A program made the translations under genes and the position numbers. From NCBI GenBank assembly GCA_963766735.1, contig CAVYBU010000006.1:88929-152928 (forward strand): DNA of 64,000 nucleotides, written 5' to 3'. How positions within the stretch are numbered: the first letter of the stretch is position 1; each line of letters opens with the position of its first letter. Under the pieces are notes generated by a model. The model did not search any database. It saw only the letters and a list, made by a program, of their open reading frames with translations, and had not been told where the DNA came from. This stretch comes from an uncultured Chloroflexia bacterium (lineage in GTDB: Bacteria; Chloroflexota; Limnocylindria; Limnocylindrales; CSP1-4). This document shows, in pieces, positions 1 to 49,002 of this stretch.

Positions 1-726
1 CTGGATGCGCGACAGGGTCGGCGTCCGCAGCTCGCCGCCGAACGTCTCGGGACCACCGAAGCCGGCGTCGTCCACGAGCACGATCAGGACGTTCGGGGCC
101 CCATCCGGCGCCTTGGGCCCGGGGATCATCGACCAGTCGCCGACGGACGTGTCCATCGTCCGGCCGACCACGCCCCCGAAGTTCCGGTCAGGGATCGGCA
201 GCACGGTCCGATCCTGGCTGAACTTGCCCATCGCCTCGGCGAGGGAATCCTTCAAGGCGGCCGTGCCCGACTTCTCCGTCTGGACAACGGAGCGCACGAG
301 CGCCCCGGCCAGGATCTGCTGGACGGCGAGGGCCTGGTCCTCCTCGAACATCGCAAGGATGGCGGCGGTGCCGGGCTTGAGCGCCTCGCCGATCTTGTCG
401 TGGAGGCCCGTCTCCATCTTGTGCTTCGCGAAGCGCCCGGCGATTCCGCCCGCCGCGGCCCCAACGACGGTGGCTGCGAGCAGCGGGGGAGCGGCAAGAC
501 CCACGAGGAAGCCGACCGAGCCGCCGTAGCCGAGCCCCTTGCGGCCGAGGTGGTCGCCGGTCTGCTGGACGATGACGTTGTCGTCCTTGTCGTGGCTGAC
601 GAGGATCGCGCCCTCGATGCTGACCTTCTTCGCCTTCACCGCGGCGACGAGGTCGTCGAATTCCTTCGTGGCGGTGTCGACGCTCGGGTACCCCGCAACC
701 AGGACGTCGGTCAACTCGTGAGCCAT
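1..726 (-). CDS. DUF1269-family membrane protein domain (about 165 aa) running in-frame, with no stop, into an arylsulfatase N-terminus; 3' end lies beyond the window start
   Basis: Reverse translation from the ATG at 726 gives MAHELTDVLVAGYPSVDTATKEFDD...GLGYGGSVGFLVGLAAPPLLAATVVGAAAGGIAGRF...ALKDSLAEAM, a DUF1269-like fold. It continues without a stop as GKFSQDRTVLPIPDRNFGGVVGRT...PNVLIVLVDDAGFGGPETFGG, the classic sulfatase N-terminus. This frame is absent from the ORF track. Confidence 0.65.
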   Translation of the reverse strand, partial: MAHELTDVLVAGYPSVDTATKEFDDLVAAVKAKKVSIEGAILVSHDKDDNVIVQQTGDHLGRKGLGYGGSVGFLVGLAAPPLLAATVVGAAAGGIAGRFAKHKMETGLHDKIGEALKPGTAAILAMFEEDQALAVQQILAGALVRSVVQTEKSGTAALKDSLAEAMGKFSQDRTVLPIPDRNFGGVVGRTMDTSVGDWSMIPGPKAPDGAPNVLIVLVDDAGFGGPETFGGELRTPTLSRIQ

Positions 727-4400: not shown

Positions 4401-4664
4401 ATGGACCTCACATTCGTCGGCTGGATCGTCGTTGGCCTGATCGCAGGGTTGTTCTCCGGCGTCGTCGCCGGTGGCCGGACGCTCCGGGGCTGGATGCCGA
4501 GCCTCGTCATCGGCCTGGTGGCCGCGGTCATCACCGGCTGGCTGCTGGTGTCATTCGCCGGGGTGGACTCGATCACCAGCATCTGGGTCTCGGCGCTGTT
4601 CGCGTCGGTCGTCGCGGTCGTCCTCCGGCTGCTCATCAAGACGGTCTCGTTCAGCGGCGACTGA
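4401..4664 (+). CDS. GlsB/YeaQ/YmgE-family small membrane protein (transglycosylase-associated)
   Basis: 87 aa with three TM helices; WIVVGLIAGLFSG...VIGLVAAVITGWLL pattern. Confidence 0.7.
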   Translation: MDLTFVGWIVVGLIAGLFSGVVAGGRTLRGWMPSLVIGLVAAVITGWLLVSFAGVDSITSIWVSALFASVVAVVLRLLIKTVSFSGD

Positions 4665-4794
4665 CGGCCGGTAGGCGGGCGCCAGGTCCCAGCGGGGGTC
4701 GGGCGTCGGGCAGGGAAGGAACAGACGCGCCGATGGCACGGTACGAACCACGCGCCCTGACAGGTCACCCCGCGCGAAGCGGAGGGACGCACCG

Positions 4795-6957: not shown

Positions 6958-7176
6958 GCAGAGACCGAACCCGGGACGGCGCCTGGCCGTGGACAGAGGA
7001 ACATCCCTGTCTGCGCCCGGCGCTCAGCCCGCACGTCGGCCGGGATCACGCTCGCTCACATCGGCTGAGTTGCCTGCAGGCTCGCATCGGAGACGCCGAC
7101 TGGCGATACTGCTCGGGCACACGGGATGATTTCCGGGAGGAAGCCGTCTCGTCCACAGGTCAGGAGGAATGGGCAC

Positions 7177-9939
7177 ATGACAGAGGTGACCGGAGCAACC
7201 GCTGCCGCCGGCGCGACGGCGTGGCACGCCCTGAGCACGGAGGACGCTCTGCAGCAGCAGGGCGTCGACGCCGACCAGGGATTGTCCTCAGCCGAGGTCA
7301 CCGCACGCAGGACGAAGTTCGGTGCCAACCGGTTTGCGGAACAGGCCCCCGAGCCGCGCCTGCGCGCCTTCCTGCGCCAGTACGCCGACGCGATGCAGAT
7401 CGTCCTGCTGGTCGCCGGCGTGCTGAGCATCTACCCGGTGGGCCAGGTCTCCACCGGGGTGATGCTGATCCTGCTGACGGTCCTCAACGCCTACCTCGGC
7501 CTGAGCCAGGAGGGCAAGGCTGCGGCGGCCGTGGCGGCGCTCCAGAAGATGATGGTCGTCAAGGCGCGGGTGCGCCGGGACGGCGAGCTGGTGGAGGTGC
7601 CGGCCGAGGAGCTCGTCCCGGGAGACATCGTGGCCTTCGAGGCCGGCGATCTCGTCACCGCGGACGGACGGATCTTCGCGGCGGCAACCCTGGAGATCGA
7701 CGAAGCGGCCCTGACCGGCGAAAGCCTGCCCGTCGCCAAGGACGTGAACCCCGTCGCCGCCGATGCGCCGCTGGGCGACCGGCTCGGCATGGCGTTCATG
7801 AACACGAACGTGACCCGTGGCTCGGGGCGCTTCGTCGTGACTGCCACCGGCATGAACACCGAGGTGGGCCACATCTCCGGGATGCTGCAGGTCGACAAGG
7901 GACAGGAGACGCCCCTGACGCGGCAGATCAACGCCTTGACCAACCAGCTCCTGATCATCGCCGGCCTCGCCCTCCTTGCCTCGATCGCGATCGGCTACTT
8001 CCGCTACGGCCAGCCATTCGATGTCCTGTTCGTGACGGCCATCGCCTTCGCCGTGTCGGCCATTCCGACGGGCCTGCCTGCCGTCATCACCACCATCCTC
8101 TCGTACGGCACGCAGACGCTCGCGAAGGCCGGCGCCATCGTGAAGCAGTTGCGATCCGTGGAGACCCTTGGATCCACTTCGGCGATCAACTCCGACAAGA
8201 CCGGCACGCTCACCCTCAACCAGATGACGGCCGTCGAGATGGCGATCCCGGGCCGCCGGTTCACCGTCTCCGGCACCGGCTACGGGATCGAGGGCTCGAT
8301 CGCGCGCGTCGCGGGTGATGCGGACGTCCCGCTCGACCCGTTCCTCCTCCCGTGCGTCCTGGCCTCCGACGCCGTCGTCAAGGATGGCGCCTTGATCGGC
8401 GACCCGACCGAGGGCGCGCTCGTTGTCCTGGCCGAGAAGGGCGGGGTCAGCGCCATCGCCACGCGAGAGGCCTACCCGCGGGTCGCAACCCTGCCGTTCG
8501 ATGCGGCCTACAAGATGATGGCCACCTTCCACCGCATGAAGGACGAGGCGGGCAAGGATGTCGTCCGCTGCTTCGTCAAGGGTGCCCCCGACCAGCTGCT
8601 GGCCCGCGGCACGTTCGTGGTCACGCCGGACCTGTCCGGGGTCCGTCCCGTCGACGACGACATGCGGGCGAGGATCCTCGCGGAGAACGAGCGCCTCGGG
8701 GCCAAGGGACTGCGCGTGATGGCAACCGGGCGCAGGGACTTCGATCCCGCCAGCTTTGATCCCGGTGCCGATCTCCTGCCGCTGCTCGACGGGATGACCC
8801 TGCTCGCCCTCGTCGGGATCGTGGACCCGCCGCGACCGGCGGCCAGGAAATCGATCGCCGAGGCGCACAGCGCCGGGATCCAGGTCCGGATGATCACCGG
8901 CGATCATGCCGTCACGGCCCAGGCGATCGCACAGGACCTGGGCATCACCGGCCGCGCCATCACCGGCGCAGAGTTCCGGGCGATGAGCGACGACCAGGCC
9001 GTCCGGGAGATCGACGGCATCGGCGTGATAGCGCGAGTGACGCCGGAGGACAAGGTCCACCTGGTCGACATCCTTCGCAAGAAGGGCCACATCGTGGCGA
9101 TGACGGGCGACGGCGTGAACGACGCGCCGGCGCTCAAGAAGGCCGACATCGGCGTGGCCATGGGCATCACGGGTACCGAGGTCTCGAAGGAGGCCGCGGT
9201 GATGATCCTCACCGATGACGACTTCGCGACGATCGTGAAGGCAGTCAAGCTGGGTCGCGGGCTCTACGACAACCTCAAGAAGTACATCCGCTTCCAGGTC
9301 GGGCTCCTGCTCGGCTACATCGTCACGTTCCTGGGCTCCAGCATCCTGAACGTGCTCGGCGGCGTCCCGTTCGTGCCCATCCAGACGCTGTTCATGAACT
9401 TCACCGTCCAGGTCTTCCAGGCGGTCGGCCTCGGCTACGGCAAGGCCGCGGACGGCCTCATGGAGCGCAGGCCGCGCCCGTCCAGCGAGCCGCTCCTCAG
9501 CGGCCCACTCCTCATCTGGCTGGCCGTCGCCGGCCTCGTGATGGGTGGCGGCACGCTGGCCGTCATCGCCTGGGCCTCGAACGTCTACGACGAGACGGTC
9601 GCGCGCACCATGGGGATGATCGCCTTCTCGATCTCGAACGTCGCGTTCTCGTTCGCGACGAAGGACGAGCGGCGGTCGGTCTTCAGCCTCGACATCATGG
9701 GCGACCGGCCGTTCCTCTACGCGACGGCGGCCTCGATCGCGACGATCGTGCTGATGACCGAGTTCGGGTTCTTCAACCGGCTCCTCGACACGACCAACCT
9801 CAACCTCGACCAGTGGGTCGTCTGCATCCTCGTCGGGTTGCTGATCATCCCCGTCTCGGAGATCCGGAAGATCGTCATCAAGAAGCCCCTCGACGAGGTT
9901 CCGTCCGAGGCTCCCATGGCAGCCGCGTTGGCCGCCTGA
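7177..9939 (+). CDS. Cation-transporting P-type ATPase, type II (PMCA/SERCA-like, Ca2+/Mg2+ type)
   Basis: DKTGTLT, TGES and [20 protein letters not shown] motifs; AGGAGG RBS 9 nt upstream of the ATG at 7177 (an in-frame ATG at 7126 is an alternative start). Confidence 0.9.
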   Translation: MTEVTGATAAAGATAWHALSTEDALQQQGVDADQGLSSAEVTARRTKFGANRFAEQAPEPRLRAFLRQYADAMQIVLLVAGVLSIYPVGQVSTGVMLILLTVLNAYLGLSQEGKAAAAVAALQKMMVVKARVRRDGELVEVPAEELVPGDIVAFEAGDLVTADGRIFAAATLEIDEAALTGESLPVAKDVNPVAADAPLGDRLGMAFMNTNVTRGSGRFVVTATGMNTEVGHISGMLQVDKGQETPLTRQINALTNQLLIIAGLALLASIAIGYFRYGQPFDVLFVTAIAFAVSAIPTGLPAVITTILSYGTQTLAKAGAIVKQLRSVETLGSTSAINSDKTGTLTLNQMTAVEMAIPGRRFTVSGTGYGIEGSIARVAGDADVPLDPFLLPCVLASDAVVKDGALIGDPTEGALVVLAEKGGVSAIATREAYPRVATLPFDAAYKMMATFHRMKDEAGKDVVRCFVKGAPDQLLARGTFVVTPDLSGVRPVDDDMRARILAENERLGAKGLRVMATGRRDFDPASFDPGADLLPLLDGMTLLALVGIVDPPRPAARKSIAEAHSAGIQVRMITGDHAVTAQAIAQDLGITGRAITGAEFRAMSDDQAVREIDGIGVIARVTPEDKVHLVDILRKKGHIVAMTGDGVNDAPALKKADIGVAMGITGTEVSKEAAVMILTDDDFATIVKAVKLGRGLYDNLKKYIRFQVGLLLGYIVTFLGSSILNVLGGVPFVPIQTLFMNFTVQVFQAVGLGYGKAADGLMERRPRPSSEPLLSGPLLIWLAVAGLVMGGGTLAVIAWASNVYDETVARTMGMIAFSISNVAFSFATKDERRSVFSLDIMGDRPFLYATAASIATIVLMTEFGFFNRLLDTTNLNLDQWVVCILVGLLIIPVSEIRKIVIKKPLDEVPSEAPMAAALAA

Positions 9940-10496: not shown

Positions 10497-11938
10497 TCAG
10501 CCCGTGGCCCCGTGGCAGGTCTTGGTCTTGCGGCCGCTGCCACAGGGACACGGGTCGTTGCGCCCCGCCTGCGCCACCGCCGTGCGGAGAGCTGCCGCTT
10601 CGCCGGCCAGGATGCCCATGGCCTCGTCCGCGTAGCGGCCCTGTCCCAGCAGCGTCGCCATCACCCGCATCGGCCGGTCGATGTGAGTGAAGAAGGACTT
10701 GTAGCCCGCGCACAGGTGGTTGAGCCCCGGCTCGCCGTCCGGGGTGTCGATGAAGCGGTTGCGCGGGCATTCCCCGTGGCACGCGAACCGCACGGGACAC
10801 TCGCGGCAGTAGCGAGGCAGCGTGTCCCGCTTGTCCGTTCCGAACGTGCGTTGCGCGGGCGACGCGACCATCTCCAGCAGGTGCTGTCGCGGATGTTGCC
10901 CAGGAGGTAGCGCGGCTCGACGAAATGGTCGCAGCTGAAGACGTCGCCGGTGTGCTCCACCGTCAGCGCGTTGCCGCATGTCTCGCCGAAGATGCAGACC
11001 GCGGGCGGGGCACCGACCCACGAGGCAAGCGCCGCATCGAAGATCTGCACGAACACGGTGCCCACGTCGCGCGCGACCCACTCGTCGAACACGCTCGAGA
11101 GGAAGCGGCCCCAGCCGTCCGCCGTGACGGAGCGTGAGGTCACCAGGCTCCCGTCGAGCGTGTACAGCGGCCGCACCTCGCGCCCAGTGGTGCCCCAGCC
11201 GGCATCGGCCACCGGCAGCGACTCGGGCGTGGCGCGCTCGACGATCGGGATGAACTGGAGGTATCGGGCCCCGACCTCGTCGCGGAAGTAGCGGTACACC
11301 TCCGCGCCCCGGTCCTGGTTCGCCTCGTGCACCGTGCACAGGATGTTGACGTCGACGCCCTGTTCCGCCATCAGCCGCGCGGCGGCGAGCACCCTGTGAT
11401 GGGTGGCCTTGCCGCCCTTGTCCACGCGGTAGCGGTCGTGGATGTCGGGCGGGCCATCCATCGAGAGCCCGACCAGGAACCGATGCTCCCGGAAGAACGA
11501 GCACCAGTCCTCGTCGATCAGCGTGCCGTTGGTCTGGATCGTGTGCTCGACCTGCTGGCCAGGCTTCCGGTACCGCTCGACCAGCTCGATCGAGCGCCGG
11601 AAGAAGTCGAGGCCCATCAGGGTGGGCTCGCCGCCCTGCCAGGCGACGGTCACGTTCGGGCTCTCGTGGGACTCGAGGAGCTGCTTGACGTACAGCTCCA
11701 GCAGATCGTCGGCCATCCGGAACGCGGAGCCCGGGTAGAGCGCCTCCTTGGACAGGAAGAAGCAGTAGGTGCAGTCGAGGTTGCACACCGCGCCCGTCGG
11801 CTTCGCCAGCAGGTGGAAGCCCGGCGGCGAGCCCGCGGGCCGCGGGTCGGGCAAGACGGGACCCGGCGCGGGGCCGGCACCGGGGCCAGAACTCCCGGTC
11901 AGAATGCCGTCGCGGGTGAGGGGGCTGCTGGGATCCAC
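10497..11938 (-). pseudogene. Radical SAM/SPASM anaerobic sulfatase-maturating enzyme (anSME-like), interrupted by a -1 frameshift near 10875-10897
   Basis: Frame A reads CNLDCTYCFF...GGEPTL...YLLGNIRDS. Frame B reads HLLEMVASPAQRTFG...CRECPVRFACHGECPRNRF...CPCGSG. A single missing base in cgcgac(c)agcacctg would restore one ORF. Confidence 0.7.
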
Positions 11939-12089
11939 GGGCCGGGTGATCTCCCTTCCTGGGGCATGGCGCGCATGGCGGCGAGGGGTCGCCGCCGGGG
12001 CTTCACTTCGGCCGGGTGAGGCAGGCCCGGACGGCGGGCACATATGATGTCAGGGACGGGCGTCTCCGGCGTGTGATGGAGGGGAGTTC

Positions 12090-12872
12090 ATGACGATCGA
12101 GGGTGCGCCCGCGCAACCCGATCCATCGGACGGCACCGCGTGGCCTAGGACCGGGACCCCCGCCGTCCTCGGCGAGGCCGCGCACCAGATGCGCGCGCCC
12201 TGGGCGGCCGGCGTCGCGGGCCTCCTGTTCGCGATCCTGTTCACCGCCGCACTCGTCCTGCTCCGCTCGGAGGCGTTGACCACTGCAACCGATGCGCAGC
12301 TGGCCGTGATGTTCGCCACTGGTGGTCACCTGCCGATCGTGATCGGCGGCCTGTACCTGGCGCCGTTCTCGGGGATCATGTTCCTGTGGTTCGTCGCCGT
12401 GGTGCGGGACCAGATCGGCGAGCGCGAGGACCGCTTCTTCGCGACGGTGTTCTTCGGCAGCGGTCTCCTGTTCGTCGCCCTCGTGTTCGTGGCGACGGCG
12501 ATCGCTAGCTCCGCGGTCGTCGGCTACCAGTACCTGGACCAGCCGGCACCGTCGGCGGACACCGTGGAGCTGCTCCGCGCGCTCTCATACACGGTGCTGT
12601 TCGCGTTCGCGACCCGGGCGGCCGCCGTCTTCCTGATCTCCATGGGCACGATCGGCCTGCGCAGCCGGACCTTCCCCAGATGGTTCGCATGGACCGCCTA
12701 CGCGCTGGGGCTCGTCCTGCTGGTCGCCGTGACGCTCTGGGACTGGATCATCCTCGTGCTCCCGGCATGGGTCGCGATCGTGAGCCTGTTCATCATGCGC
12801 CGCGAGCGGGCGCGCCGGCCCAGCCGCGGGCCTGGCGGCGTCAGCGAGCCCGGACCCGACCGGGTCCCCTGA
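12090..12872 (+). CDS. Hypothetical polytopic membrane protein
   Basis: GGAGGGGAG RBS, six or more predicted TM helices, coding-like GC3. Confidence 0.55.
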   Translation: MTIEGAPAQPDPSDGTAWPRTGTPAVLGEAAHQMRAPWAAGVAGLLFAILFTAALVLLRSEALTTATDAQLAVMFATGGHLPIVIGGLYLAPFSGIMFLWFVAVVRDQIGEREDRFFATVFFGSGLLFVALVFVATAIASSAVVGYQYLDQPAPSADTVELLRALSYTVLFAFATRAAAVFLISMGTIGLRSRTFPRWFAWTAYALGLVLLVAVTLWDWIILVLPAWVAIVSLFIMRRERARRPSRGPGGVSEPGPDRVP

Positions 12873-12877
12873 GGCTG

Positions 12878-15475
12878 ATGTCGGCCGCGGTCGGGCTGCG
12901 CAATCTCCTGGGCCGGGCCAGGCTCGCGATCGAGGGGCCGGAGGGGCCGGCAATCGCCTGGACGCTGCGCGGCTACCTCCCGAGCCAGCTCTCCGGCGAC
13001 GTCATCTCGGGCCTGACCGTCGCGGCCCTGATCGTCCCCCTGAGCATCGGCTACGCCGGCGTCGCCGGGCTGCCGCCGGAGGTGGGCCTGTACGCGTCGA
13101 TGGTGCCGCTTGCGGCGTATGCGATCTTCGGGTCGGCTCGGCAGGTGATCGTCGGTCCCGATGCGTCCACGGCGGCGCTGATCGCCGCGACCATTGCGCC
13201 GCTGGCGGTTGTCAGCGACGACCGCGTCCGGCTCGCCGGCGTGCTGGCCCTGATGGTTGCCGCGGTCTTCGTCGTCATGCGGCTCGGCCGGATGGGCTTC
13301 CTGGCCGACTTCCTCTCCCGCCCGATCCTGGTCGGCTACATGACGGGCGTGGGCATCACCGTCGCGGCCGGGCAGGTTGCGAAGATCGCAGGCGGATCGG
13401 CGATCGCGGACGCGATCGCGGTCCTGTCGGGTATCGACTGGAGCGCCGCCGACCCGAGGGCCGTCGCCGACGCGCTCCTGATCGCTGTCCGTGGCTCTGG
13501 CGCGGACCTCACCTCATTGGTCATCGGCATCGCCGTGGTGGTCGCCATGCTGCTCGGCCGTCGGTACCTGCCACGGGTCCCGATGGCGCTGGTGGCCATG
13601 ATCGTGGCAATGGTGGCGAGCGCGGCGTTCGACCTCCAGTCCAGGGGAGTCCAGGTGCTGGGTCCGGTGTCGCCCGGGCTGCCAGGGATCGGCATTCCGA
13701 CGGCGTCCGCGACGGAGCTCGTCGGGCTGCTGCCCGGAGCGCTCGGCCTCGCGATCCTGAGCTTCGCGGACACGGCGGCCACCGGACGAACGTTTGCGGC
13801 CCGCCGCCACGAGCGCACCGACGCGAACCGGGAGCTGGTGGCGCTGGCCGCGGCCGACGCCGGAGGGGCCCTCACCGGCGGCTACGCGATCAGCTCCAGC
13901 CCGTCACGGACGGCAGGGGCGGTGAATGCCGGGTCGAGCTCCCAGCTCACCGGGCTGATCGCGATGGCCTCGGTCGCCGTGGTCCTGGTGCTGCTGACCC
14001 GGCCGCTGTCCTACCTCCCGATACCCGCCCTGGGTGGCGTCATCTTCGTCGCCGTCCTCGGCCTCATCGACGTCCGCGGGATCGTCCGGATCCTGAACCT
14101 CAAGTCCAGCGAGGGCCTGATCGCGATCATCACGATGACCGGGGTGATCCTGTACGGAACGCTCATCGGCGTTGGTATCGCCGTGTTGCTGGCAGCCCTG
14201 AACATCGTGCGCCGGGCGGCGTGGCCGCAGATCGTCGAACAGGGCCGTCTCGACGACGGAACCTGGCGGGATCTCACCCGACAACCCGAGGCACGCCGCG
14301 TTCCCGGGGTGATCGTGATCCGGTTCACGGGTCCCCTGTTCTTTGCGAACGCCACGGCCCTCCAGGCGCTGACCCGCGAGCTCATGGCCGGTCGGCTCGA
14401 CACGAGGGCGGTGGTCCTCGACCTTGCCGCGACCGCCGACATCGACGTCACCGCCGGCGGCGCCATCAGGGAGCTGGCGGACGACCTGGCTCGCGCCGGC
14501 CGGCAGCTGACGGTCGCGGGGCCGCTGGGCCCCGTGCGCGACGAGCTGCGGGCATACGGGCTGGCCGACCTGATGGAGGCCACCGGAGGAACACGCGGCA
14601 GCATCGACGAAGCGATCGCCGGTCTCGGCCTGGACCCGTCGCGCGCGGTGGAGCCCGGCGAGAGGGGGAGCGGTGCGGCGTCCGCAGCGGACACGACGCC
14701 GGAACCCGGGGAGCCGGTGGCCGGCGAGCCCGAGGAGCCGGCGGCCGAGGAACCCCGGGCCGGCGAGCCCCGGCCCGGCGAAGGCCTCGTCGTGCGGGTC
14801 CTCGCCATCGCGCTGGGGATCGTGGTCGCCGCGACCCTGCTGGGGACGGCGCTCAACGCCTGGCGTGGTGAGGCGTCCGGTGTGTCTGTCGTCCCCAACC
14901 TGGTCGGGCTGTCCCTCGATCGTGCCTCGACGGCCGCAGGGGATGCGGGCTTCACGCTGGCGCCCCCGGTCTACGTCCAGCGGAACGATCGACCGGAGAA
15001 CACGGTCGTTGCCCAGGACCCGCCGGCCGGGACCGAGTTGGAGCGGGGATCCGTGATCCGCCCGGTGGTCAGCACCGCACGTGGGCTGGTGCGCGTGCCG
15101 GATGTCGTTGGCCAGGCCGAGTCCCAGGCCATCGCAACCCTGACCAGTGCGGGCCTCATCGTCCGCAGATCGGACAGCGTGTTCGATGAGGCGCTGCCCG
15201 CTGGTGCCGTCGTCACCACGAGCCCGGCGGCGGGCGTCTCGGTGGCGAAGGGCACGGTCGTCGACTACGTCGTGTCCGAAGGCGAGGAGCCCACACCGGC
15301 GCCCTCGGCAACGCCGGCTCCATCCCCGACGCCCTCGGCAACGCCGTCGCCGGCAACGACGGGCACGCCGACGGTTTCGCCATCACCGCCGGACGGGACG
15401 CCACCAGTTGAGGCGCCGACCGGGACGCCCCCGAATGCCACGCCTCCAGCCGGGACGGCCAGTCCCACCTTCTGA
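12878..15475 (+). CDS. SulP-family anion transporter with STAS domain, then an extra TM helix, two PASTA domains and a Pro/Thr/Ser-rich tail
   Basis: SulP core (GDVISGLTVAALIVPLSIGYA...), STAS (VIVIRFTGPLFFANATAL...), the TM helix LVVRVLAIALGIVVAATLLGTAL, and two PASTA units (VPNLVGLSLDRAS..., VPDVVGQAESQAIATLTSAGL...). Confidence 0.85.
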   Translation: MSAAVGLRNLLGRARLAIEGPEGPAIAWTLRGYLPSQLSGDVISGLTVAALIVPLSIGYAGVAGLPPEVGLYASMVPLAAYAIFGSARQVIVGPDASTAALIAATIAPLAVVSDDRVRLAGVLALMVAAVFVVMRLGRMGFLADFLSRPILVGYMTGVGITVAAGQVAKIAGGSAIADAIAVLSGIDWSAADPRAVADALLIAVRGSGADLTSLVIGIAVVVAMLLGRRYLPRVPMALVAMIVAMVASAAFDLQSRGVQVLGPVSPGLPGIGIPTASATELVGLLPGALGLAILSFADTAATGRTFAARRHERTDANRELVALAAADAGGALTGGYAISSSPSRTAGAVNAGSSSQLTGLIAMASVAVVLVLLTRPLSYLPIPALGGVIFVAVLGLIDVRGIVRILNLKSSEGLIAIITMTGVILYGTLIGVGIAVLLAALNIVRRAAWPQIVEQGRLDDGTWRDLTRQPEARRVPGVIVIRFTGPLFFANATALQALTRELMAGRLDTRAVVLDLAATADIDVTAGGAIRELADDLARAGRQLTVAGPLGPVRDELRAYGLADLMEATGGTRGSIDEAIAGLGLDPSRAVEPGERGSGAASAADTTPEPGEPVAGEPEEPAAEEPRAGEPRPGEGLVVRVLAIALGIVVAATLLGTALNAWRGEASGVSVVPNLVGLSLDRASTAAGDAGFTLAPPVYVQRNDRPENTVVAQDPPAGTELERGSVIRPVVSTARGLVRVPDVVGQAESQAIATLTSAGLIVRRSDSVFDEALPAGAVVTTSPAAGVSVAKGTVVDYVVSEGEEPTPAPSATPAPSPTPSATPSPATTGTPTVSPSPPDGTPPVEAPTGTPPNATPPAGTASPTF

Positions 15476-15498
15476 CGCGGACAGCGGACCCGCGTGCG

Positions 15499-17730
15499 AT
15501 GATCCCTCAACCGAACCCCGGGCATGACCCGGGAGGCAATCAGGAGACACCCGTGCGCCGGTTCCTGTTCGAAGCCCTGGTCGATGCGCTCATCCTCATC
15601 GGGCTCGCCTTCCTCCTGTCGCTGATTCACGTCCCGCAGCCGTTCCCGTTCGGGAGCGGACGCGCCCCGATCATGGTCGGCCAGGGCGCCGGGTTCATCG
15701 GATTCTTCGTGTTCGCCGTCGTCCTTGGCGTCGTGAACCGCGGAGTGCGGCCGGTGATCGTCGCGTTCACCGGCCGCCTGGTGCTCGCGACCGCCGGCAT
15801 GTTCATGGTCGTGATCACGTGGCTCGTGTTCTCGATCACGTCGTTCTTCGCCCCCGAACTGGTCGTGGTCGCGGCGCCGACGATTCTCTGGACGCTCGTT
15901 CTCGCGGCCCTCTACGGGTTCGTCTCGATCGTGCTGGACGCGGTGCTGGGGCTCAGCCGGCCATCGCTCGACGTCGAAGGCCGGGGGAAGTTCATCTGGC
16001 GCTTCCTGGACGGGCTCCCCACGCCTCGCCGCAACGCCATCATCGAGAACCTGCGGTTCCAGCAGGTGTACGACACCCTCTACCGCTACGGGCTCGACAT
16101 CTTCCTCGGCGGCACGTCGATCGGCCGGATCCGCGCCTGGATCCAGCGGGTCATCTTCCGCGAGGAGGAGCCGTTCGTCGGGCTGTCCACGCCCGCCCGG
16201 ATCCGGATGATGCTCCAGTCGCTCGGGCCGACGTACGTGAAGATCGGCCAGATGGTGGCGAGCCGCGGCGAGGCATTGCCCCCGGAGTGGCTCACGGAGC
16301 TGCAGATGCTGCAGAGCGACGTGGCGCCGTTCCCGTACGAGCAGGCGCGCGAGGTCATCACCAAGGAGCTGGGCAAGCCGCCCGAGGAGCTGTTCGCGAC
16401 GTTCGAGACGGAACCGTTCGCGGCGGCCTCCACCGCCCAGGTCCACCGCGCGACGCTCCACGACGGGACCCTCGTCGCGGTCAAGGTCCAGCGGCCCAAC
16501 ATCGTCGCCAAGACCAAGGCCGACCTGGGCGTCATGCAGGAGCTCGCCCGGCAGCTTGCCAGGCGCGTCGAGATTGCCCGCCAGCTCGACGTGGAGGGAA
16601 TCCTGCGCGAGTTCGCCAGCGGCGTGATCAGCGAGATGGACTATCGCAACGAGGCCTACAACGCGCGTCGGATCTCCGAGGCGATGGTCAAGTTCGAGCG
16701 GATGCACGTGCCCGTGGTCTATGGCCGCCTGTCGGGCGAGCGCGTCATGACGGCCGAGTTCGTGAAGGGGTTCAAGATCAGCGATGTCGCCGCGCTCGAC
16801 GCCGCCGGCATCGACCGCAAGGAGATCGGGGTGGTCTTCGTCAGGGCCCTGATCAAGCAGGTCCTGGTCGACGGCTTCTTCCACGGCGATCCGCATCCCG
16901 GCAACATCTTCGTCGAGCCCGACACCGGGCGGATCACGTTCCTCGATTTCGGGCTCGTCGGCCGGCTCACCCAGAACCAGCGCATGGACCTCCTGGACAT
17001 GATCAACGGGCTCCAGCTGAAGGACTCGTCGGCGGTGGCCAGGGCGCTCCAGGGCCTGAGCACGGTCGGACCCGACTTCAACGAGCGCGGGTTCACGGAG
17101 GCGGTCGACCGGATCGTCCGCGAGTACCTCGTGTATGGCGAGGGCGACGGCATCGCGGACGCGATGTCCGCGGTCATGGGCGCCGTATACGGGCATGGCC
17201 TGCGGCTGGACAACGACCTCACGCTCGCGATGAAGGCCGTCATCCAGGCACAGGAGACCGCCTCGATCCTCGACCCGTCGATCGACATCGGCAAGGCGGC
17301 CATGGAAGAGGCGCGGGACGCGCTGGTGGCGGGGCTGACACTCGACAACATCGAGAAGACCGCGACCGCCACGGGCCTCCGTGTCGGCAAGGAGCTGGTC
17401 CGCCGCCTGCCCACGCTGGAATCGGCCGCCTTCATGTGGATCGACCAGTTCGGCAAGGGCAAGATCACGGTGGCGATCGACACCAGCGAGCTGGACACCC
17501 AGTTCCGGCAGCTGGACGACACAGGACGGCGGCTCACGATGGGGCTGCTCACCGTCGGCCAGCTGATCGGCTCGGCGATCCTCGCCGTCGTCCTGCTCCA
17601 GCCGGCGATTGCAGATACGGTGGGGCCGCTGGCCTCGATCGCGGTGTTCGCCTTCTTCGGGGTCCTGGCCTACAGCCTGTTCATCACCTACCGCGTCGGC
17701 CGCCGGCCGGAAGACGACAGCAGGCGCTGA
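15499..17730 (+). CDS. ABC1/UbiB-family atypical protein kinase with an N-terminal 4-TM holin-like membrane domain and C-terminal TM helices
   Basis: ABC1 kinase core (YVKIGQMVASRGEALP, AAASTAQVHRATL, FFHGDPHPGNIF, LDFG) and flanking hydrophobic domains. Confidence 0.85.
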   Translation: MIPQPNPGHDPGGNQETPVRRFLFEALVDALILIGLAFLLSLIHVPQPFPFGSGRAPIMVGQGAGFIGFFVFAVVLGVVNRGVRPVIVAFTGRLVLATAGMFMVVITWLVFSITSFFAPELVVVAAPTILWTLVLAALYGFVSIVLDAVLGLSRPSLDVEGRGKFIWRFLDGLPTPRRNAIIENLRFQQVYDTLYRYGLDIFLGGTSIGRIRAWIQRVIFREEEPFVGLSTPARIRMMLQSLGPTYVKIGQMVASRGEALPPEWLTELQMLQSDVAPFPYEQAREVITKELGKPPEELFATFETEPFAAASTAQVHRATLHDGTLVAVKVQRPNIVAKTKADLGVMQELARQLARRVEIARQLDVEGILREFASGVISEMDYRNEAYNARRISEAMVKFERMHVPVVYGRLSGERVMTAEFVKGFKISDVAALDAAGIDRKEIGVVFVRALIKQVLVDGFFHGDPHPGNIFVEPDTGRITFLDFGLVGRLTQNQRMDLLDMINGLQLKDSSAVARALQGLSTVGPDFNERGFTEAVDRIVREYLVYGEGDGIADAMSAVMGAVYGHGLRLDNDLTLAMKAVIQAQETASILDPSIDIGKAAMEEARDALVAGLTLDNIEKTATATGLRVGKELVRRLPTLESAAFMWIDQFGKGKITVAIDTSELDTQFRQLDDTGRRLTMGLLTVGQLIGSAILAVVLLQPAIADTVGPLASIAVFAFFGVLAYSLFITYRVGRRPEDDSRR

Positions 17731-17816
17731 GCCGGCGGCCGCCCAATGCTGCACGGGACAGCCCGGGTGGTCTGGGCGACCGGGGTCGTCAGCCGGGCCG
17801 GGAGGAACCTGATCGC

Positions 17817-18518
17817 ATGAGCACCGCGTTCCCGGGCTTTCGCCCAGAGGCGCTGGACTTCCTCGTGGAGCTGGCCCTCAACAACGATCGATCGTGGTTC
17901 GGGCCGCGCAAGGCCTCCTTCGAGGCGCTGCTCAAGCGGCCCCTCGAACAACTCTGCGCCGCGGTCAACCTGGAGTTTCTGGCCCGCGACCTCCCGCTCG
18001 CCGCGGATCCGGCCAGGTCCCCGTTCCGGATCTACCGGGACGTCCGGTTCGCCAAGGACAAGTCGCCGTACAAGACCAACGTGGGCGCGAGCTTCCCGTG
18101 GATCGGAGACGGCGGCGGGGTGGGCGGCTACTTCCACCTGGAACCGGGCGGCGTGTTCGTCGGGGGCGGGATGTGGCACCCGGCGCCGGCCCGGCTGGCG
18201 GCGTGGCGGAGCGCCGTCATCGCGGACCGGGGGAGCATCCATGCCGTGGTGGAGGACCCGGGGTTCGTGTCGGAGTTCGGCGCCGTGGACGGTGATCGCC
18301 TGAAGCGGGCCCCGAAGGGGTTCGCCCAGGACGACCCCGACATCGAGCTCCTGAAGCTGAAGGACGTGGTCTTCGGGCGCCCGCTCGCGGACGCGGACGT
18401 GATGGGGTCAGACCTGCCGGCGAAGATCGCGGACACCCTGGTCCACGCCACGCCCCTGCTGCGCCTCCTGGCCGGCCTGCCGGGCCACGAGACGGACGCG
18501 AGGTGGCTCCGGGACTGA
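17817..18518 (+). CDS. DUF2461 / TIGR02453-family protein
   Basis: FRIYRDVRFAKDKSPYKT...GGYFHLEPGGVFVGGGMW signature; GGGAGGAA RBS. Confidence 0.8.
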   Translation: MSTAFPGFRPEALDFLVELALNNDRSWFGPRKASFEALLKRPLEQLCAAVNLEFLARDLPLAADPARSPFRIYRDVRFAKDKSPYKTNVGASFPWIGDGGGVGGYFHLEPGGVFVGGGMWHPAPARLAAWRSAVIADRGSIHAVVEDPGFVSEFGAVDGDRLKRAPKGFAQDDPDIELLKLKDVVFGRPLADADVMGSDLPAKIADTLVHATPLLRLLAGLPGHETDARWLRD

Positions 18519-18538
18519 TTCCGGTCGGGGTCGCGAGG

Positions 18539-19364
18539 TCAGCTGTCGATCGCGCGGTTGACCCAGTGCGCCGGCCGGGTGAGCGCCGGTGAGAGCCGGG
18601 TCCCGGGATTGCCGCTGGCGGCCTCGAGCTGGGATTGCGTCACGAACAGGGCGCCGCGCAGATCCGCGCCGGCAAGGTTCGCGCCGCGCAGGTCAGCGCC
18701 CGCGAGATCGGCCTTCCCCAGCTTGGCGCCGCGGAGGTCGGCCCCGATGAGCATCGCCCCGCGCAGGTTCGCACCCCGCAGGTCCTGGCCGCGGAGGTCG
18801 ACCCCGGCCAGATCGGCGCCCCGTTTGTCCGGCGCGCTGCGGCTGGTCGCCGGACCCGGCCCCCGCCCGCACCAGCTCGCTGGCCTTCCCCAGGAGCGCG
18901 CCGATCGCCTCCCGGCGGCCTGCCACGTCCACGGCCAGCAGGGCATCGGCCGGCTCCTCAGCCAGCGACTCGACCTCGTCCAGCGCCACCCGCAGCTCGG
19001 GGTGGATCGGGTGGGCCGCCGCCAGCGCCAGCGCTTCGGTCAGATACCAGGCCAGCTCGTGGAGCTGGCGCATGACCGTGAAGGCGTCGAACATGGGCTC
19101 GGCCAACTCAGGCGAGCGTCGCCAGTCCTTTTCGGCAAACGTGGCCTGGGCCAGGTGCTGGCCCGCCCCAAAGCAGTCGTAGGCGACACAGCCCGGGAAG
19201 CCCGCCACCCTGAGGCGGGCGTGGATCCGGCACCCGAAGTCGGGCCCCAGGTTGGGGCAGGCCTCCCCCACAGGCTTGTCGATGGCGAAGTCCGCGGATG
19301 CCGCGAAGGCCAGCGCGACGCAGCACAGCCCGACGCAGCGGCTGCAGTCCGCGCGAAGCTCCAA
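18539..19364 (-). pseudogene. Pentapeptide-repeat protein with a Cys-rich N-terminal domain; frames shift in a C/G run near 18855-18870
   Basis: N-terminal domain MELRADCSRCVGLCCVALAFAASADFAIDK...[15 protein letters not shown] in frame 2. [33 protein letters not shown] repeats in frame 1. The junction lies at the gcgggcgggggccggg run. Confidence 0.65.
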
Positions 19365-21129: not shown

Positions 21130-22044
21130 GTGAAGATCATCGTCGCGGTCGACGGCTCGCCGCAGGCCAGTCTGGCGGTCGCCTGGATGGCGCAGATGCC
21201 GCTGACGGACGCAGATGAGATCCTCGTGACCTCGGTCGCCGAACGACCGGTGATCATCGGGGCCTGGGGATCTGCGTACCACGAGGGGTACGAGACGATC
21301 ACCCCAGAGATGCTGGCCTCGAACCGGGCTGCTGCGCAGCGAGCTGCGGATACGGCCGCCGCGGTCCTGTCCCCTGGAGCATGTCCGGTGAAGGTCCTGG
21401 TCCGGGAGGGGCATCCCATCGAGGAGCTCCTTGCGGCCATCGCGGAGGCCGGTGCGGACCTGATCGTCGTCGGCCCTCACGGCCACGGCGCGCTCGAGAC
21501 GATCCTCCTGGGCAGCGTGTCCCAGGCGCTGCTCCATGCCATGGCGACCTCCGTGCTCGTCGCCCGGGAGCCCATCGGTGCCCCGCGGCGCATCCTGCTG
21601 GCATCGGATGGTTCGACGCACAGCCTGGCGGCGGCTCGGTTCGTCGCGCAGCTCCCGCTCGCGGCCGACGTGAGGATCGACGTGCTGGTGGTGATCGATC
21701 GCTGGCCGCCGGCGCACGCGGATGACAAGGTCGTCGTCCCCGATGCGTTCGCCGCGGTCCAGCAGACCAGCTTGGAGGAGATCATCCAGGACACGGTCGG
21801 GGTCCTCGAGGCCGGCGGCAGGACCGGGGTACCGGTCATCCGGCACGGCAACGCCAAGCGGGAGATCCTGACCGCGGCGAGGGATCTCCACAGCGACCTC
21901 GTCGTGACCGGAGCCCGGGGTGTCGGCGGCTTCCGCGGCCTCCTGCTCGGGAGCGTCTCGCGCGCCGTCGGCAAGGCAGCACCGTGCTCGACACTGGTGG
22001 TGTGCGAGGAGAGCGCGTCACGCACGGCGGACGAGCCGGGGTGA
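21130..22044 (+). CDS. Tandem universal stress protein (two UspA domains)
   Basis: Two repeats of the ...VAVDGS.../...LASDGS... and GSVS/GSVSRAV USP motifs; GGAGAGGAG RBS. Confidence 0.85.
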   Translation: MKIIVAVDGSPQASLAVAWMAQMPLTDADEILVTSVAERPVIIGAWGSAYHEGYETITPEMLASNRAAAQRAADTAAAVLSPGACPVKVLVREGHPIEELLAAIAEAGADLIVVGPHGHGALETILLGSVSQALLHAMATSVLVAREPIGAPRRILLASDGSTHSLAAARFVAQLPLAADVRIDVLVVIDRWPPAHADDKVVVPDAFAAVQQTSLEEIIQDTVGVLEAGGRTGVPVIRHGNAKREILTAARDLHSDLVVTGARGVGGFRGLLLGSVSRAVGKAAPCSTLVVCEESASRTADEPG

Positions 22045-22243: not shown

Positions 22244-22402
22244 ATGGCCTCCCCGGCCGCCGTCCGGATCGGCGCCGACGACCCCGGCGTCGGCGACCCG
22301 TCCGGCAGCACTCGCTCCAGCATCACGATCCTGCGCGTGGCGATCGTCGTCCTGGTCACGTCCGTCGTCCTGCTCGCTGAAATCCGGAGGTCCAGCCGGT
22401 GA
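22244..22402 (+). CDS. Candidate 52-aa single-TM peptide, translationally coupled (GTGA overlap) to the downstream P-type ATPase
   Basis: GGGAGGG RBS 7 nt upstream of the ATG at 22244; [52 protein letters not shown]; high GC3; its stop overlaps the ATPase GTG start; not in the ORF track. Confidence 0.35.
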   Translation: MASPAAVRIGADDPGVGDPSGSTRSSITILRVAIVVLVTSVVLLAEIRRSSR

Positions 22403-30470: not shown

Positions 30471-30559
30471 GCGGGAATGGTACGGCCGTCGCACCGGCCC
30501 AGGCCGGGCCAACCACGTGGCCGGACCCCAGACTTGCCGCGGCGTGCGAGCATCTGCCC

Positions 30560-38699: not shown

Positions 38700-38700
38700 C

Positions 38701-47079: not shown

Positions 47080-49002
47080 TCAGGGGGTGCAGGTCCCCAC
47101 GACCGCCGGGTCCTCAAAGTCGAGCTTGATCGGCGTGCCGGCCGGGTTCTTGGTGCCCGCCGCGGGCGACTGGCTCGTCACGATCCAATCCGCCGGAACC
47201 GGGTCGGGATTGAGCGTCCCGAGGCTGAACCCGTCGTCGTCGATCGTCGTCGTGGCCTTGTCGAGCTTCATGCACTTGTAGTTGCCCACGTTGGCCGGCG
47301 CCGGCGTCGGCGTCGGTGTGGGCGGCGGGGTCGGCGGCGGAGTGGGGCTCGGTGTCGGGCTCGGGGTGGGTGTGGGCGTCGGGCTCGGGGTGGGCTCAGG
47401 CCCCATCGAGACGACGTAGGCCACCGGCGACTCGGGCGCCATCAGCTGGCCGGGTCCGGGTGACTGGTCGATGACGGACCCGAGCGGGACCTGCGGGTCG
47501 AAGGCCTCTGAGCGCGATCCCACGACGAGGCCCTCGCTGACGATCAGCTGCAGCGCCTCGGCCTCGGTCAGGCCGCTGAGGTCCGGAACGGCGACCGCGA
47601 CCTTTCCCCGCGCGAGGATCAGCTTGATCTCGGCACCCTCGGCCACGAGGGCACCTTCGACGGGAGTCTGCTTGAGGACCGTCTCCGGTTCGACGTCCGC
47701 CCGCTCCTCGGTGCCATCGATGACGACGACCAGCCCGAGCTCCTTGGCGGCAACGTCGGCATCGGCATACAGCATGTCCACGAAGCTGGGGACCGTCACT
47801 TCGGCGGCCGCGCTGGGCGACGGCTCGTCCCGACCGCCGGTCAGTGTCTGGAACAGGAGGAAGCCAACGACGATCAGGATGCCGACGCCCAGCAGTCCTG
47901 CGACCCAGGCCCACGGGGACCCACCCGTCGGCTCATCGTCGGAGATGGGCGGGGGAGGCGGCGCACCCGTCGTGGACACGGAAGGAGTGGACGACGCCGA
48001 GCGGGCGTACGCGTCGGGCGGGTAGGGCACGGGGTTCGGACGAGCCTGGGCGGACGCGACGGTCGCGGCAGCCGCGGTGGCGGCAGCCGCGCCCGCGGCG
48101 GACGCTCCGGCGGCGGTGGCACTGCTGGGATCCGCGAGATACCCCTCCAGGGCGCTGGCCATGGCGGCGGCAGTCGCATAGCGGGCGGCCGGATCCAGGG
48201 CCATCGCGCGCTGGACGACGGTGTCCAGCTGTGCCGGCACGCCGGCACGCAGGGACGAGGGGCGCGGCGGCGTGGTCGTGAGCCGGGCAAGGGCAACCGC
48301 GGCGGCACCATCGCCTGAGAACGGGCGCTGTCCGGTCAGCGTCTCGAACAGGACGATGCCCAGGGCGTAGATGTCGGAGGCGACCGTCGCCGGCTCGCCG
48401 CGGGCCTGCTCCGGGCTGAAGTAGTGGACGGATCCCATCGTGACGCCCGGCATCGTCAGCTGGGACTCGGCGAGGGCACGCGCGATGCCGAAGTCGGCAA
48501 CCTTCACGCGGCCGTCGCGACCGACGAGGACGTTGGACGGCTTGACGTCCCGGTGGACGATCCCGCGGACATGCGCGGCGTGCAGCGCCTTCGCGACCTC
48601 CACGGAAACCCGCGCGGCCTGCCGGGGGGCCAGGGGACCGTTCTCCCGGAGGATGGCGCCAAGATCCTGGCCGTCCACCAGCTCCATGACGATGTACGGG
48701 CCGGATGCGTCCTCGCCAAAGTCGAAGACGGCCACGATGTTCGGGTGGTTGAGCGACGCGGCGGCACGCGCCTCGTCCCGGAACCGGGCGAGGAAGTCCG
48801 GGTCCTTGCCGAACTCCGGGCGGAGGAGCTTCACGGCAACATCCCGCTCGAGCTGCGCGTCGCGCGCCCGGTAGATGGTGGCCATGCCGCCCTGTCCGAG
48901 GAGCTCCAGGAGGCGGTAACGACCGCCGAGCGTGCTCCCGATCTCCGTCACAGTGTGCTCGTCTCCCTCTTCGGTTGCGATGGTCCGTCGCAGCGGACGC
49001 AT
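47080..49002 (-). CDS. Ser/Thr protein kinase, PknB-like, with a TM helix and extracellular PASTA domains
   Basis: Hanks kinase motifs (GQGGMATIY, HRDVKPSNVL, DFGIA, SPEQ), a TM helix (WAWVAGLLGVGILIVVGFLLF) and PASTA repeats. Confidence 0.9.
   Translation of the reverse strand: MRPLRRTIATEEGDEHTVTEIGSTLGGRYRLLELLGQGGMATIYRARDAQLERDVAVKLLRPEFGKDPDFLARFRDEARAAASLNHPNIVAVFDFGEDASGPYIVMELVDGQDLGAILRENGPLAPRQAARVSVEVAKALHAAHVRGIVHRDVKPSNVLVGRDGRVKVADFGIARALAESQLTMPGVTMGSVHYFSPEQARGEPATVASDIYALGIVLFETLTGQRPFSGDGAAAVALARLTTTPPRPSSLRAGVPAQLDTVVQRAMALDPAARYATAAAMASALEGYLADPSSATAAGASAAGAAAATAAAATVASAQARPNPVPYPPDAYARSASSTPSVSTTGAPPPPPISDDEPTGGSPWAWVAGLLGVGILIVVGFLLFQTLTGGRDEPSPSAAAEVTVPSFVDMLYADADVAAKELGLVVVIDGTEERADVEPETVLKQTPVEGALVAEGAEIKLILARGKVAVAVPDLSGLTEAEALQLIVSEGLVVGSRSEAFDPQVPLGSVIDQSPGPGQLMAPESPVAYVVSMGPEPTPSPTPTPTPSPTPSPTPPPTPPPTPTPTPAPANVGNYKCMKLDKATTTIDDDGFSLGTLNPDPVPADWIVTSQSPAAGTKNPAGTPIKLDFEDPAVVGTCTP

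Follow-up and report, generated by a model that had tools for sequence, protein, structure and literature searches.

The 64,000-nt stretch of DNA analysed here (the window) is part of contig CAVYBU010000006.1 from an uncultured Chloroflexia bacterium, and this report concerns one of its genes, at 12878–15475 on the plus strand, in which a SulP/SLC26 anion transporter and its STAS domain are followed in the same reading frame by an additional transmembrane (TM) helix and two PASTA domains. The gene and the segments of its product are as follows.

12878..15475, plus strand: the whole fusion gene, 865 residues plus a stop codon, encoding SulP, STAS, linker, TM helix, PASTA, PASTA, and a proline/threonine-rich (PT) tail in an uninterrupted open reading frame (ORF)
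12989..14215, plus strand: SLC26/SulP transmembrane domain, residues 38–446, with 14 TM segments, two of which (TM3 and TM10) are short half-helices
14282..14590, plus strand: STAS domain, cytoplasmic, residues 469–571 (Pfam PF01740, 7.3e-15)
14594..14779, plus strand: predicted cytoplasmic linker, disordered, acidic, and Pro/Ala-rich, residues 573–634
14780..14854, plus strand: extra (15th) TM helix, predicted N-in/C-out, residues 635–659
14885..15085, plus strand: PASTA domain 1, residues ~670–736, beginning 10–13 residues past the membrane
15086..15283, plus strand: PASTA domain 2, residues 737–802 (best Pfam stretch 738–800, profile positions 1–63 of 64)
15284..15472, plus strand: Pro/Ser/Ala/Thr-rich low-complexity tail, predicted to be extracellular, residues 803–865

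The fusion is a genuine single gene and no assembly chimera. The ORF that contains it is free of stop codons from 12680 to 15475, and the ATG of the gene at 12878, which lies 5 nt past the stop of the upstream gene (12090–12872), is shared with a public gene call of 100% identity (P0001). In the annotated frame, the GC content at third codon positions (GC3) is 0.80–0.97 across the STAS domain, linker, TM helix, and PASTA domains and falls to about 0.72–0.75 in the Pro-rich tail only; the GC content of the window is roughly 70%. Between 14500 and 14950 the annotated frame contains no stop, whereas both alternative frames are interrupted by stops. Sulfate_transp, STAS, and PASTA matches all exceed their Pfam gathering scores in the one 865-residue protein (2.2e-74, 7.3e-15, and 8.3e-23, respectively), the PASTA match (PF03793) comprising two stretches with 80.6 bits against a cutoff of 23.2. 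An earlier reading of the sequence alone (the original prediction) had described one gene encoding SulP, STAS, a TM helix, two PASTA units, and a PT tail, and both Pfam and the continuous frame agree with it; the single product of that gene stands as well, with a length of 865 residues, as the 866 given originally includes the stop codon. The continuous frame, steady GC3, and stops in the other frames rule out a missed stop or frameshift between the STAS and PASTA regions, and a sub-threshold PASTA score is ruled out by the bit score just given. A search for the same fusion in relatives, as a safeguard against a chimeric assembly, found that 83 of the 96 best clusters keep the TM helix and both PASTA domains. 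We give a negligible chance to an artefact in which mis-assembly or a missed frameshift has attached the 3′ end of a PASTA kinase gene to a SulP gene. Several database relatives are frameshifted in this GC-rich region, as such an artefact might lead one to expect, but PASTA sequence persists downstream in these copies, the codon bias of the present gene is constant along its frame, the identical fusion occurs in the 83 clusters from many samples and assemblers, and the fusion is syntenic at the related locus L004. We therefore dismissed a frameshift or chimera.

The transporter half adopts the SLC26 fold. Sulfate_transp (PF00916) aligns to residues 38–419 over profile positions 1–380 of 380 (250.9 bits; cutoff 23.2). 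An AlphaFold2 (AF2) model built from an alignment of 52 family sequences (mean predicted local distance difference test [pLDDT] score 84.9; predicted TM-score [pTM] 0.77) reaches a pLDDT >90 for the transporter, the STAS domain, and both PASTA domains, and displays in the transporter the 7+7 inverted-repeat fold, with short helices at residues 96–106 and 342–350. Foldseek returned TM-scores of 0.82–0.88 to the TM domains of SLC26Dg and BicA, and E values down to 1e-33 for prestin and SLC26A6, and a PDB search matched the STAS domain to the structure of the Rv1739c STAS domain (2kln). The NCBIfam model for sulP (TIGR00815) is covered over positions 2–554 of 565 at 318.2 bits, under its cutoff of 380.45. 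Despite this sub-cutoff score, its fold, domains, and site residues make the protein a member of the SulP/SLC26 family, and sequence comparison identifies its SulP part as a divergent subfamily with an unchanged fold.

The residues of the anion site (a Tyr on TM1 and Ser and Arg residues at the N terminus of TM10) and the acidic residue of TM8 were compared with those of AtSULTR4;1. By alignment, Tyr116, Ser390, Ser392, Arg393, and the proton-sensing Glu347 of the plant transporter correspond to Tyr59, Ser341, Ser343, Arg344, and Asp298 of the fusion, all five of which are invariant across 52 homologs. The exception among the site residues is Gln112, which is Leu55 here, a Leu that is invariant in the family, as is Asp95 just before TM3. 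A Glu or Asp at the Glu347 position in TM8 marks H+/Na+-coupled members of SLC26 (PMC8298490). Given the acidic Asp298 at this position and the retained Tyr/Ser/Arg anion site, the protein is likely a cation (H+ or Na+)-coupled anion symporter. We gave up an assignment of the substrate from the binding-site residues, as no residue pattern predicts selectivity in this family (PMC8298490). Among solved structures, the best matches are prestin and SULTR-type proteins (rice SPDT, 9u9f, 2e-52; AtSULTR4;1, 7lhv, 5e-51), with BicA (9e-13) and SLC26Dg (2e-11) as distant matches. On the basis of the SULTR-type relatives and of neighbouring genes of a sulfatase system (see below), we predict sulfate as the substrate with about even odds. 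Bicarbonate, which the original prediction had offered as a possible substrate, is disfavoured, both by the match to BicA (9e-13 vs 5e-51 for the plant sulfate transporter) and by the recurrence of sulfatase-system genes nearby.

Past the STAS domain, residues 597–631 of the linker are disordered in the model (pLDDT <50), and the helix that follows contains the segment quoted in the original prediction, LVVRVLAIALGIVVAATLLGTAL (residues 637–659), which is the highest Kyte–Doolittle peak of the protein (2.66); AF2 gives residues 635–658 a pLDDT of just 55–67. The 15 residues before this helix contain a mean of 2.8 Lys+Arg and the 15 after it 0.83, and the N-terminal side is the richer in 48 of 52 homologs, in keeping with the positive-inside rule. 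An Arg at position 636, the cytoplasmic end of the helix, is conserved in 40 of the 52. Solved structures have established that both termini and the STAS domain of SLC26 proteins are cytoplasmic, so that one further TM helix would put the C terminus outside. The SLC26 topology, the positive-inside rule, and the PT-rich tail together place the PASTA pair outside the cytoplasm in silico; the original prediction had likewise put it outside the cell, in agreement with the SLC26 topology and the Lys+Arg bias. A conserved packing face on the extra helix is unsupported despite an apparent small-residue pattern, as its conservation lacks helical periodicity in a helical moment test (p = 0.51). Both PASTA units have the expected fold of one helix packed against a three-stranded sheet (PASTA1: helix 680–689, strands 698–701, 709–714, and 726–733; PASTA2: helix 748–757, strands 761–768, 777–782, and 794–800; pLDDT >90 in each). 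The tail that follows (pLDDT <50) averages 33% Pro, 18% Ser, 16% Ala, and 13% Thr across the family, varies in length from 1 to 109 residues, and yielded no sorting signal when scanned for LPXTG and similar motifs.

Origin and constraint of the TM–PASTA module

The outer module resembles that of the PASTA kinases. The NCBIfam model PknB_PASTA_kin (NF033483) aligns its positions 314–504 with residues 618–809 of the fusion (85.9 bits; cutoff 450), and at E ≤ 0.01 the ectodomain matches nothing in the PDB but PASTA structures from kinases (Mycobacterium tuberculosis [Mtb] PknB and Staphylococcus aureus Stk1), with no penicillin-binding protein (PBP) among them. The tandem PASTA domains align in register with PASTA1–2 of Stk1, and Pfam finds no Pkinase domain in the 865-residue protein. 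A kinase of this kind is encoded elsewhere in the window.

47080..49002, minus strand: canonical PASTA Ser/Thr kinase, 640 residues (Pfam Pkinase 1.7e-48 and PASTA 1.1e-28)

In this kinase, the Pkinase domain is followed by a linker, a TM helix, a pair of PASTA domains, a PT-rich stretch, and a degenerate third domain that resembles PASTA, and the linker, TM helix, PASTA1, PASTA2, and PT tail of the fusion align in that order with its residues 356–550 (34% over 199 residues; E = 1e-14). The nearest matches that are not fusions are the PASTA halves of pknB genes in fhaA-fhaB-pstP-rodA-pbpA operons. The stand-alone ‘PASTA-only’ matches, too, are pieces of pknB genes in fhaA-pstP-rodA-pbpA operons. 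By sequence, the PASTA module is of the kinase type, the window kinase representing a paralogous source type, and the fusion looks like a PknB in which a SulP–STAS unit has taken the place of the kinase domain. One genome thus carries PASTA modules on two different outputs, a kinase and a transporter.

The parallel with PASTA kinases (PknB, Stk1, PrkC, StkP) extends to the juxtamembrane linker, the single TM helix, and the membrane-proximal PASTA domains, which occur in the same order and register; PknB likewise joins its cytoplasmic unit to the TM helix through a disordered linker, and the window kinase shares with the fusion a PT-rich stretch after PASTA2. The fusion differs from these proteins in having no kinase domain but a transporter and STAS domain instead, and in its two PASTA repeats, compared with four in PknB and three in Stk1 and PrkC. 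Class B PBPs of the PBP2x type also end in two tandem PASTA domains outside the membrane, but Pfam detects neither a Transpeptidase nor a PBP_dimer match in the fusion.

An exhaustive search with the TM helix and PASTA pair for other transporter fusions or a donor kinase gave a ranking dominated by giant multi-PASTA proteins. The word-indexed search with the 169-residue module returned hits of 98–292 residues only and missed the fusions of more than 800 residues that contain a copy 60–90% identical to the query, an apparent length bias. Representative clusters matching the module at E ≤ 1e-3 number 18,722. Among the proteins found are huge ones (P0152–P0299), of up to about 3500 residues with 5–25 tandem PASTA domains, which are abundant in metagenomes and some of which carry BACON_2, fn3, DUF6777, or DUF3466 parts; a transporter domain was present in none of the 10 giant proteins examined. 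Like the fusion, stand-alone and giant multi-PASTA proteins have PASTA domains outside the context of kinases and PBPs; unlike it, the giant proteins are secreted or anchored arrays of 5–25 units combined with BACON, fn3, or DUF domains.

A homolog search over 5.8 billion proteins, from which 96 close clusters were taken, showed that the TM helix and PASTA pair are kept down to about 45% identity (phmmer with residues 631–805, the 83 clusters mentioned above), in clusters that come from independent metagenomes and metagenome-assembled genomes (MAGs). Ordinary SulP–STAS proteins start at about 42% identity and lower. A neighbour-joining tree of the SulP–STAS part alone groups the fusion proteins into a single clade, set apart by a long branch from the ordinary SulPs around it, which indicates a single fusion event and points to a fusion fixed once within a Chloroflexota clade (Ca. 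Limnocylindria). Named members of the family are Chloroflexota of ‘Candidatus Limnocylindrales’, and the full fusion occurs at just four loci among the GTDB species representatives, all of them Chloroflexota MAGs; the closest of these, L004, has 89% identity and is syntenic with the window. The GC content of 68.9% reported for Ca. Limnocylindria (PMC10608941) fits that of the window. The original prediction's expectation of relatives among actinobacteria was wrong, as the named members, the GTDB loci, and the GC content all identify the host as Chloroflexota / Ca. Limnocylindria. Database labels for the family read ‘SulP family inorganic anion transporter’ or ‘high affinity sulfate transporter’ only.

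The segments of the protein evolve at very different rates. In the following list, identities (mean pairwise) and lengths are family-wide, and the ratio of nonsynonymous to synonymous substitution rates (dN/dS) compares the window with L004.

Transporter: pairwise identity 0.64; dN/dS 0.11
STAS domain: pairwise identity 0.49; dN/dS 0.13
Cytoplasmic linker: pairwise identity 0.20; length 42–92 residues; dN/dS 0.74
Extra TM helix: pairwise identity 0.28; dN/dS 0.87
Linker between TM helix and PASTA1 (ecto-linker): length 10–13 residues
PASTA1: pairwise identity 0.48; length 66–67 residues; dN/dS 0.26 (PASTA1 and PASTA2 jointly)
PASTA2: pairwise identity 0.49; length 65–66 residues; dN/dS 0.26 (PASTA1 and PASTA2 jointly)
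Tail: dN/dS 0.66

These substitution patterns identify the PASTA pair as being under purifying selection, with the linker and the TM anchor evolving almost freely. Constraint acts on the outside module and on its spacing from the membrane, and the connection to the transporter is a loose tether.

Some database entries of the family have no PASTA domains, and these nest within the fusion clade and either have Arg-rich out-of-frame tails or end at contig edges. In the DNA of one of them (P0079, at locus L090) a break within the linker ends the ORF, with the PASTA sequence still encoded downstream in an adjacent ORF that was merged incorrectly; the public gene call at this locus merges the PASTA region of the fusion with a MalT-like regulator into a 1000-residue frameshift chimera. 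We dismissed the notion that PASTA-less relatives reveal a dispensable module, as these entries are frameshifted or truncated, judging from their tails and, for P0079, as verified in the DNA. Arg-rich frameshift tails occur in P0028, P0036, P0067, P0071, P0083, P0087, P0089, and P0096, and likewise in a neighbouring gene at L004 (9211–9979). This suggests that indel errors in high-GC MAG assemblies inflate the apparent count of PASTA-less variants. Split pairs of a SulP and a PASTA gene were also looked for at 76 other SulP loci, none of which has a PASTA ORF in the 10 kb to either side.

A proposed role for the PASTA pair

The role that we propose, with a probability of roughly 45%, is that of an outer module by which a cation-coupled anion transporter, possibly one for sulfate, is positioned or clustered on nascent peptidoglycan or lipid II. 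The pair would bind a peptidoglycan-related ligand, for example lipid II or un-crosslinked stem peptides, and this binding would position or cluster the transporter where wall is made or exposed, as has been proposed for PknB. SLC26 transporters are normally dimers, so that the fusion transporter would be bivalent and display two PASTA arms near the outer membrane surface, and coupling would operate through location and avidity, with no rigid conformational relay. As the same genome encodes a PASTA kinase, a single external signal could act on phosphorylation and anion transport alike. In PknB, the PASTA ectodomain binds mDAP (meso-diaminopimelate)-type lipid II, and loss of binding mislocalises the kinase (PMC6428115); for PrkC, oligomerisation is induced by peptidoglycan fragments (PMC5786024).

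Several observations weigh against this proposal. In growing Bacillus subtilis, the septal localisation of PrkC is independent of its PASTA domains (PMC5786024), and PASTA-driven targeting is therefore not universal. Conservation of the residues with which Mtb PknB contacts lipid II was considered and rejected on alignment: the motif Ser556-Lys557-x-Asn559-Gln560 aligns to VSEGEE in the fusion, and the linker between PASTA1 and PASTA2, VSTARG, does not contain it either, although the motif is not universal among PASTA proteins. With regard to transport, the selectivity of SLC26 proteins follows from no pattern of binding-site residues (PMC8298490), and the invariant Leu55 stands where all eukaryotic members have a Gln, with the invariant Asp95 preceding TM3. 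The AF2 model is of a monomer and silent on dimer geometry. No peptidoglycan-synthesis gene is a conserved neighbour of the fusion gene, the neighbourhoods being variable and consisting mostly of ion transporters, and the sulfatase link is missing in 6 of about 9 contexts. The further suggestion of the original prediction, that anion or bicarbonate transport is coupled to wall growth, is not borne out by the disordered linker of 42–92 residues with its dN/dS of 0.74, the TM helix without a conserved face, the altered PknB contact residues, and the lack of conserved cell-wall neighbours.

A different possibility is that the PASTA pair is an extracellular ligand sensor that switches or tunes the SLC26 transporter, which we regard as unlikely. 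A peptidoglycan ligand would then alter the transport rate allosterically, an idea to which we give a minor share of credence, and the route would be packing of the extra TM helix on the gate or core domain or a change in STAS or dimer geometry. STAS domains are known regulators of SLC26 transport, and the purifying selection on the PASTA pair, its fixed distance of 10–13 residues from the membrane, and the conserved Arg636 at the cytoplasmic end of the helix would suit such a device. Transmission of a signal would, however, have to pass through a cytoplasmic linker that is disordered, variable in length (42–92 residues), and nearly neutral, and through a helix with a dN/dS of 0.87, an identity of 0.28, and no periodicity (p = 0.51), which AF2 places without confidence (pLDDT 55–67). 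Rigid allosteric gating is less likely than positioning or clustering. Alternatively, the PASTA domains and PT tail could be a passive wall tether or spacer that anchors or spaces the transporter without specific ligand sensing, serving stability or exclusion from some membrane zones. PT-rich tails are typical of wall-spanning linkers (here 1–109 residues, with no sorting motif), the known ligand-contact residues are not conserved, and structural-looking giant multi-PASTA proteins are abundant in metagenomes; against this stand PASTA units as conserved as the STAS domain (0.48–0.49 vs 0.49), in a strict number of two and with a fixed length over roughly 55% sequence divergence. Conservation, count, and length amount to more constraint than a simple spacer needs, and we consider a passive tether rather improbable.

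Two further explanations were weighed. The cytoplasmic output–linker–TM–PASTA layout, which mirrors that of PknB, might belong to a transceptor or scaffold in which PASTA input alters the binding partners of the STAS domain, with an output like that of anti-sigma-factor antagonists and with transport secondary. The STAS domain has a weak match to the anti-sigma-factor antagonist family (TIGR00377, 2e-4, below cutoff), and a MalT-like STAND/LuxR regulator lies directly downstream in three related loci (L003, L089, L090). The transport domain is, however, the most conserved part of the protein (identity 0.64; dN/dS 0.11) with all anion-site residues invariant, and no partner gene is conserved clade-wide, which makes a transceptor quite unlikely. 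Still smaller is the chance that the PASTA domains act as a tethered binding protein, concentrating an anionic, wall-derived substrate (D-Glu, diaminopimelate, or dicarboxylates) for uptake by the SulP domain. Some SulP proteins carry organic dicarboxylates, and SLC26Dg is a fumarate transporter (PMC8298490); PASTA domains of kinases bind stem-peptide moieties (PMC6428115). The match to the dicarboxylate transporter DauA is nevertheless weak (112 bits vs a cutoff of 614), the closest relatives in sequence are SULTR-type proteins for inorganic anions, and SLC26 transporters are not known to carry binding domains on a tether.

Compared with described SulP/SLC26 proteins (AtSULTR4;1, rice SPDT, prestin, SLC26A members, Rv1739c, BicA, and SLC26Dg; TC 2.A.53), the fusion shares the succession of Sulfate_transp and STAS, the Tyr/Ser/Arg anion site, and the acidic residue of TM8, but no described member extends past the STAS domain into a TM helix and an extracytoplasmic domain; the fusion has about 295 extra residues, which comprise the 15th TM helix, two PASTA domains, and the PT tail. 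A fusion of SulP with carbonic anhydrase, Rv3273, is said to have been described by Felce and Saier in 2004 and is a precedent for a C-terminal accessory domain that hints at function. Known accessory fusions of SulP proteins such as carbonic anhydrase are cytoplasmic and enzymatic. The domain added here differs in being a binding-type module that the extra TM helix places outside. The literature searched contains no description of an extracytoplasmic binding module on an SLC26 protein, and databases give generic SulP names, consistent with the original prediction that this architecture is undescribed; about 80 entries named ‘SulP family inorganic anion transporter’ conceal the extra PASTA module.

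Work on PASTA domains has been confined almost entirely to the ectodomains of PknB-type kinases and PBP2x-type transpeptidases, and SLC26/SulP proteins have been understood as a membrane domain with a cytoplasmic STAS domain and no extracellular receptor. A fusion selected across a lineage shows that the TM–PASTA cassette is portable to a different output. The role of PASTA domains is still disputed for kinases (PMC6428115 vs PMC5786024), and a transporter read-out, simpler than a phosphorylation network, could help to settle whether they act in sensing, localisation, or clustering. The fusion would, moreover, be an initial indication of a link between cell-wall growth and the uptake or homeostasis of anions in some monoderm-type bacteria. 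Should the PASTA pair prove to be a sensor, the flux of sulfate or another anion, and hence turgor or sulfur supply, would be adjusted directly to the state of peptidoglycan synthesis, and the protein would represent both the first ligand-regulated prokaryotic SLC26 transporter and the first PASTA output that is neither kinase nor PBP, operating alongside the PASTA kinase that its genome also encodes.

Gene neighbourhood

The fusion gene lies in a same-strand run with a 260-residue membrane protein (5-nt gap), an ABC1 kinase (23-nt gap), and a DUF2461 gene, and genes of a sulfatase system lie on its upstream side.

4..231, minus strand: sulfatase gene truncated by the window edge, leaving an N-terminal fragment (tblastn with the sulfatase of L003, E = 8e-11)
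10661..12043, minus strand: anaerobic sulfatase maturase (radical SAM/SPASM), divergently oriented (TIGR03942, 376 bits against a cutoff of 349)
12090..12872, plus strand: 260-residue multi-TM protein, 5 nt upstream of the fusion gene
15499..17730, plus strand: ABC1/UbiB-type atypical kinase (Pfam ABC1 3.8e-75) with an N-terminal 4-TM Phage_holin_4_2-like region

The 260-residue protein has no Pfam or NCBIfam match. It occupies the same position in L004 (9211–9979; 88% identity), and a homolog in L087 (6237–7004; 61% identity) overlaps the start of the fusion gene by 4 nt; it is absent from the rest of the fusion clade. In part of the clade it is likely transcribed together with the fusion gene, to which it is probably also coupled in translation. 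An ABC1 kinase is also found near the fusion gene in L004, L087, and L089, the version in L089 being PLDc_2+ABC1, and in L090 a protein with holin_4_2 and Phosphodiest domains takes its place. A scan of 11800–19000 for promoters and terminators gave nothing beyond chance.

The divergent maturase is retained in L004, L001, and L002. About 76 N-terminal residues of its ORF lie outside the profile match, and the true start may therefore be further downstream. L004 has a full sulfatase gene at the position syntenic with the fragment at the window edge, and the distant locus L003 encodes two sulfatases and a formylglycine-generating enzyme (FGE; 1161–2729, 4621–5598, and 16458–18824). Of the independent contexts, roughly 9 in number, 3 have a maturase, sulfatase, or FGE gene no more than about 13 kb away from the fusion.

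In a subclade of about 50% identity, the fusion gene is directly followed by a MalT-like STAND/LuxR regulator (AAA_16–WHD_MalT–GerE) and then a CMD gene. The regulator is located as follows.

L003, 13993–16386: MalT-like regulator
L089, 9540–11837: MalT-like regulator
L090, 6881–9883: MalT-like regulator

No operon partner conserved clade-wide was found, the neighbours differing between loci; Na+/H+ exchangers, AI-2E transporters, P-type ATPases, K+ channels, and DUF6325 are frequent but non-universal. The window itself has a set of ion-homeostasis genes (933–1634 on the minus strand, 4795–6957, 7126–9939, 21130–22044, and 22399–25083), comprising a TMEM175-like K+ channel, a double-length AI-2E transporter of 720 residues, two P-type Ca2+/cation ATPases, and a tandem Usp protein; Na+/H+ exchangers, an Ion_trans channel, and a mechanosensitive (MS) channel are present in addition at related loci.

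Further along the window are a non-homologous end-joining (NHEJ) pair, a protein with a LigD primase-polymerase domain (30272–32032, plus strand) and an ATP-dependent DNA ligase (33464–34951, minus strand), and, at 38001–41939 on the plus strand, what looks like a module for envelope stress, with consecutive genes for an OmpR-type response regulator, a HAMP/HisKA sensor kinase, and an HtrA-like Trypsin_2–PDZ protease. An extracytoplasmic function (ECF) sigma factor is encoded near the end of the window (62959–63546, plus strand).

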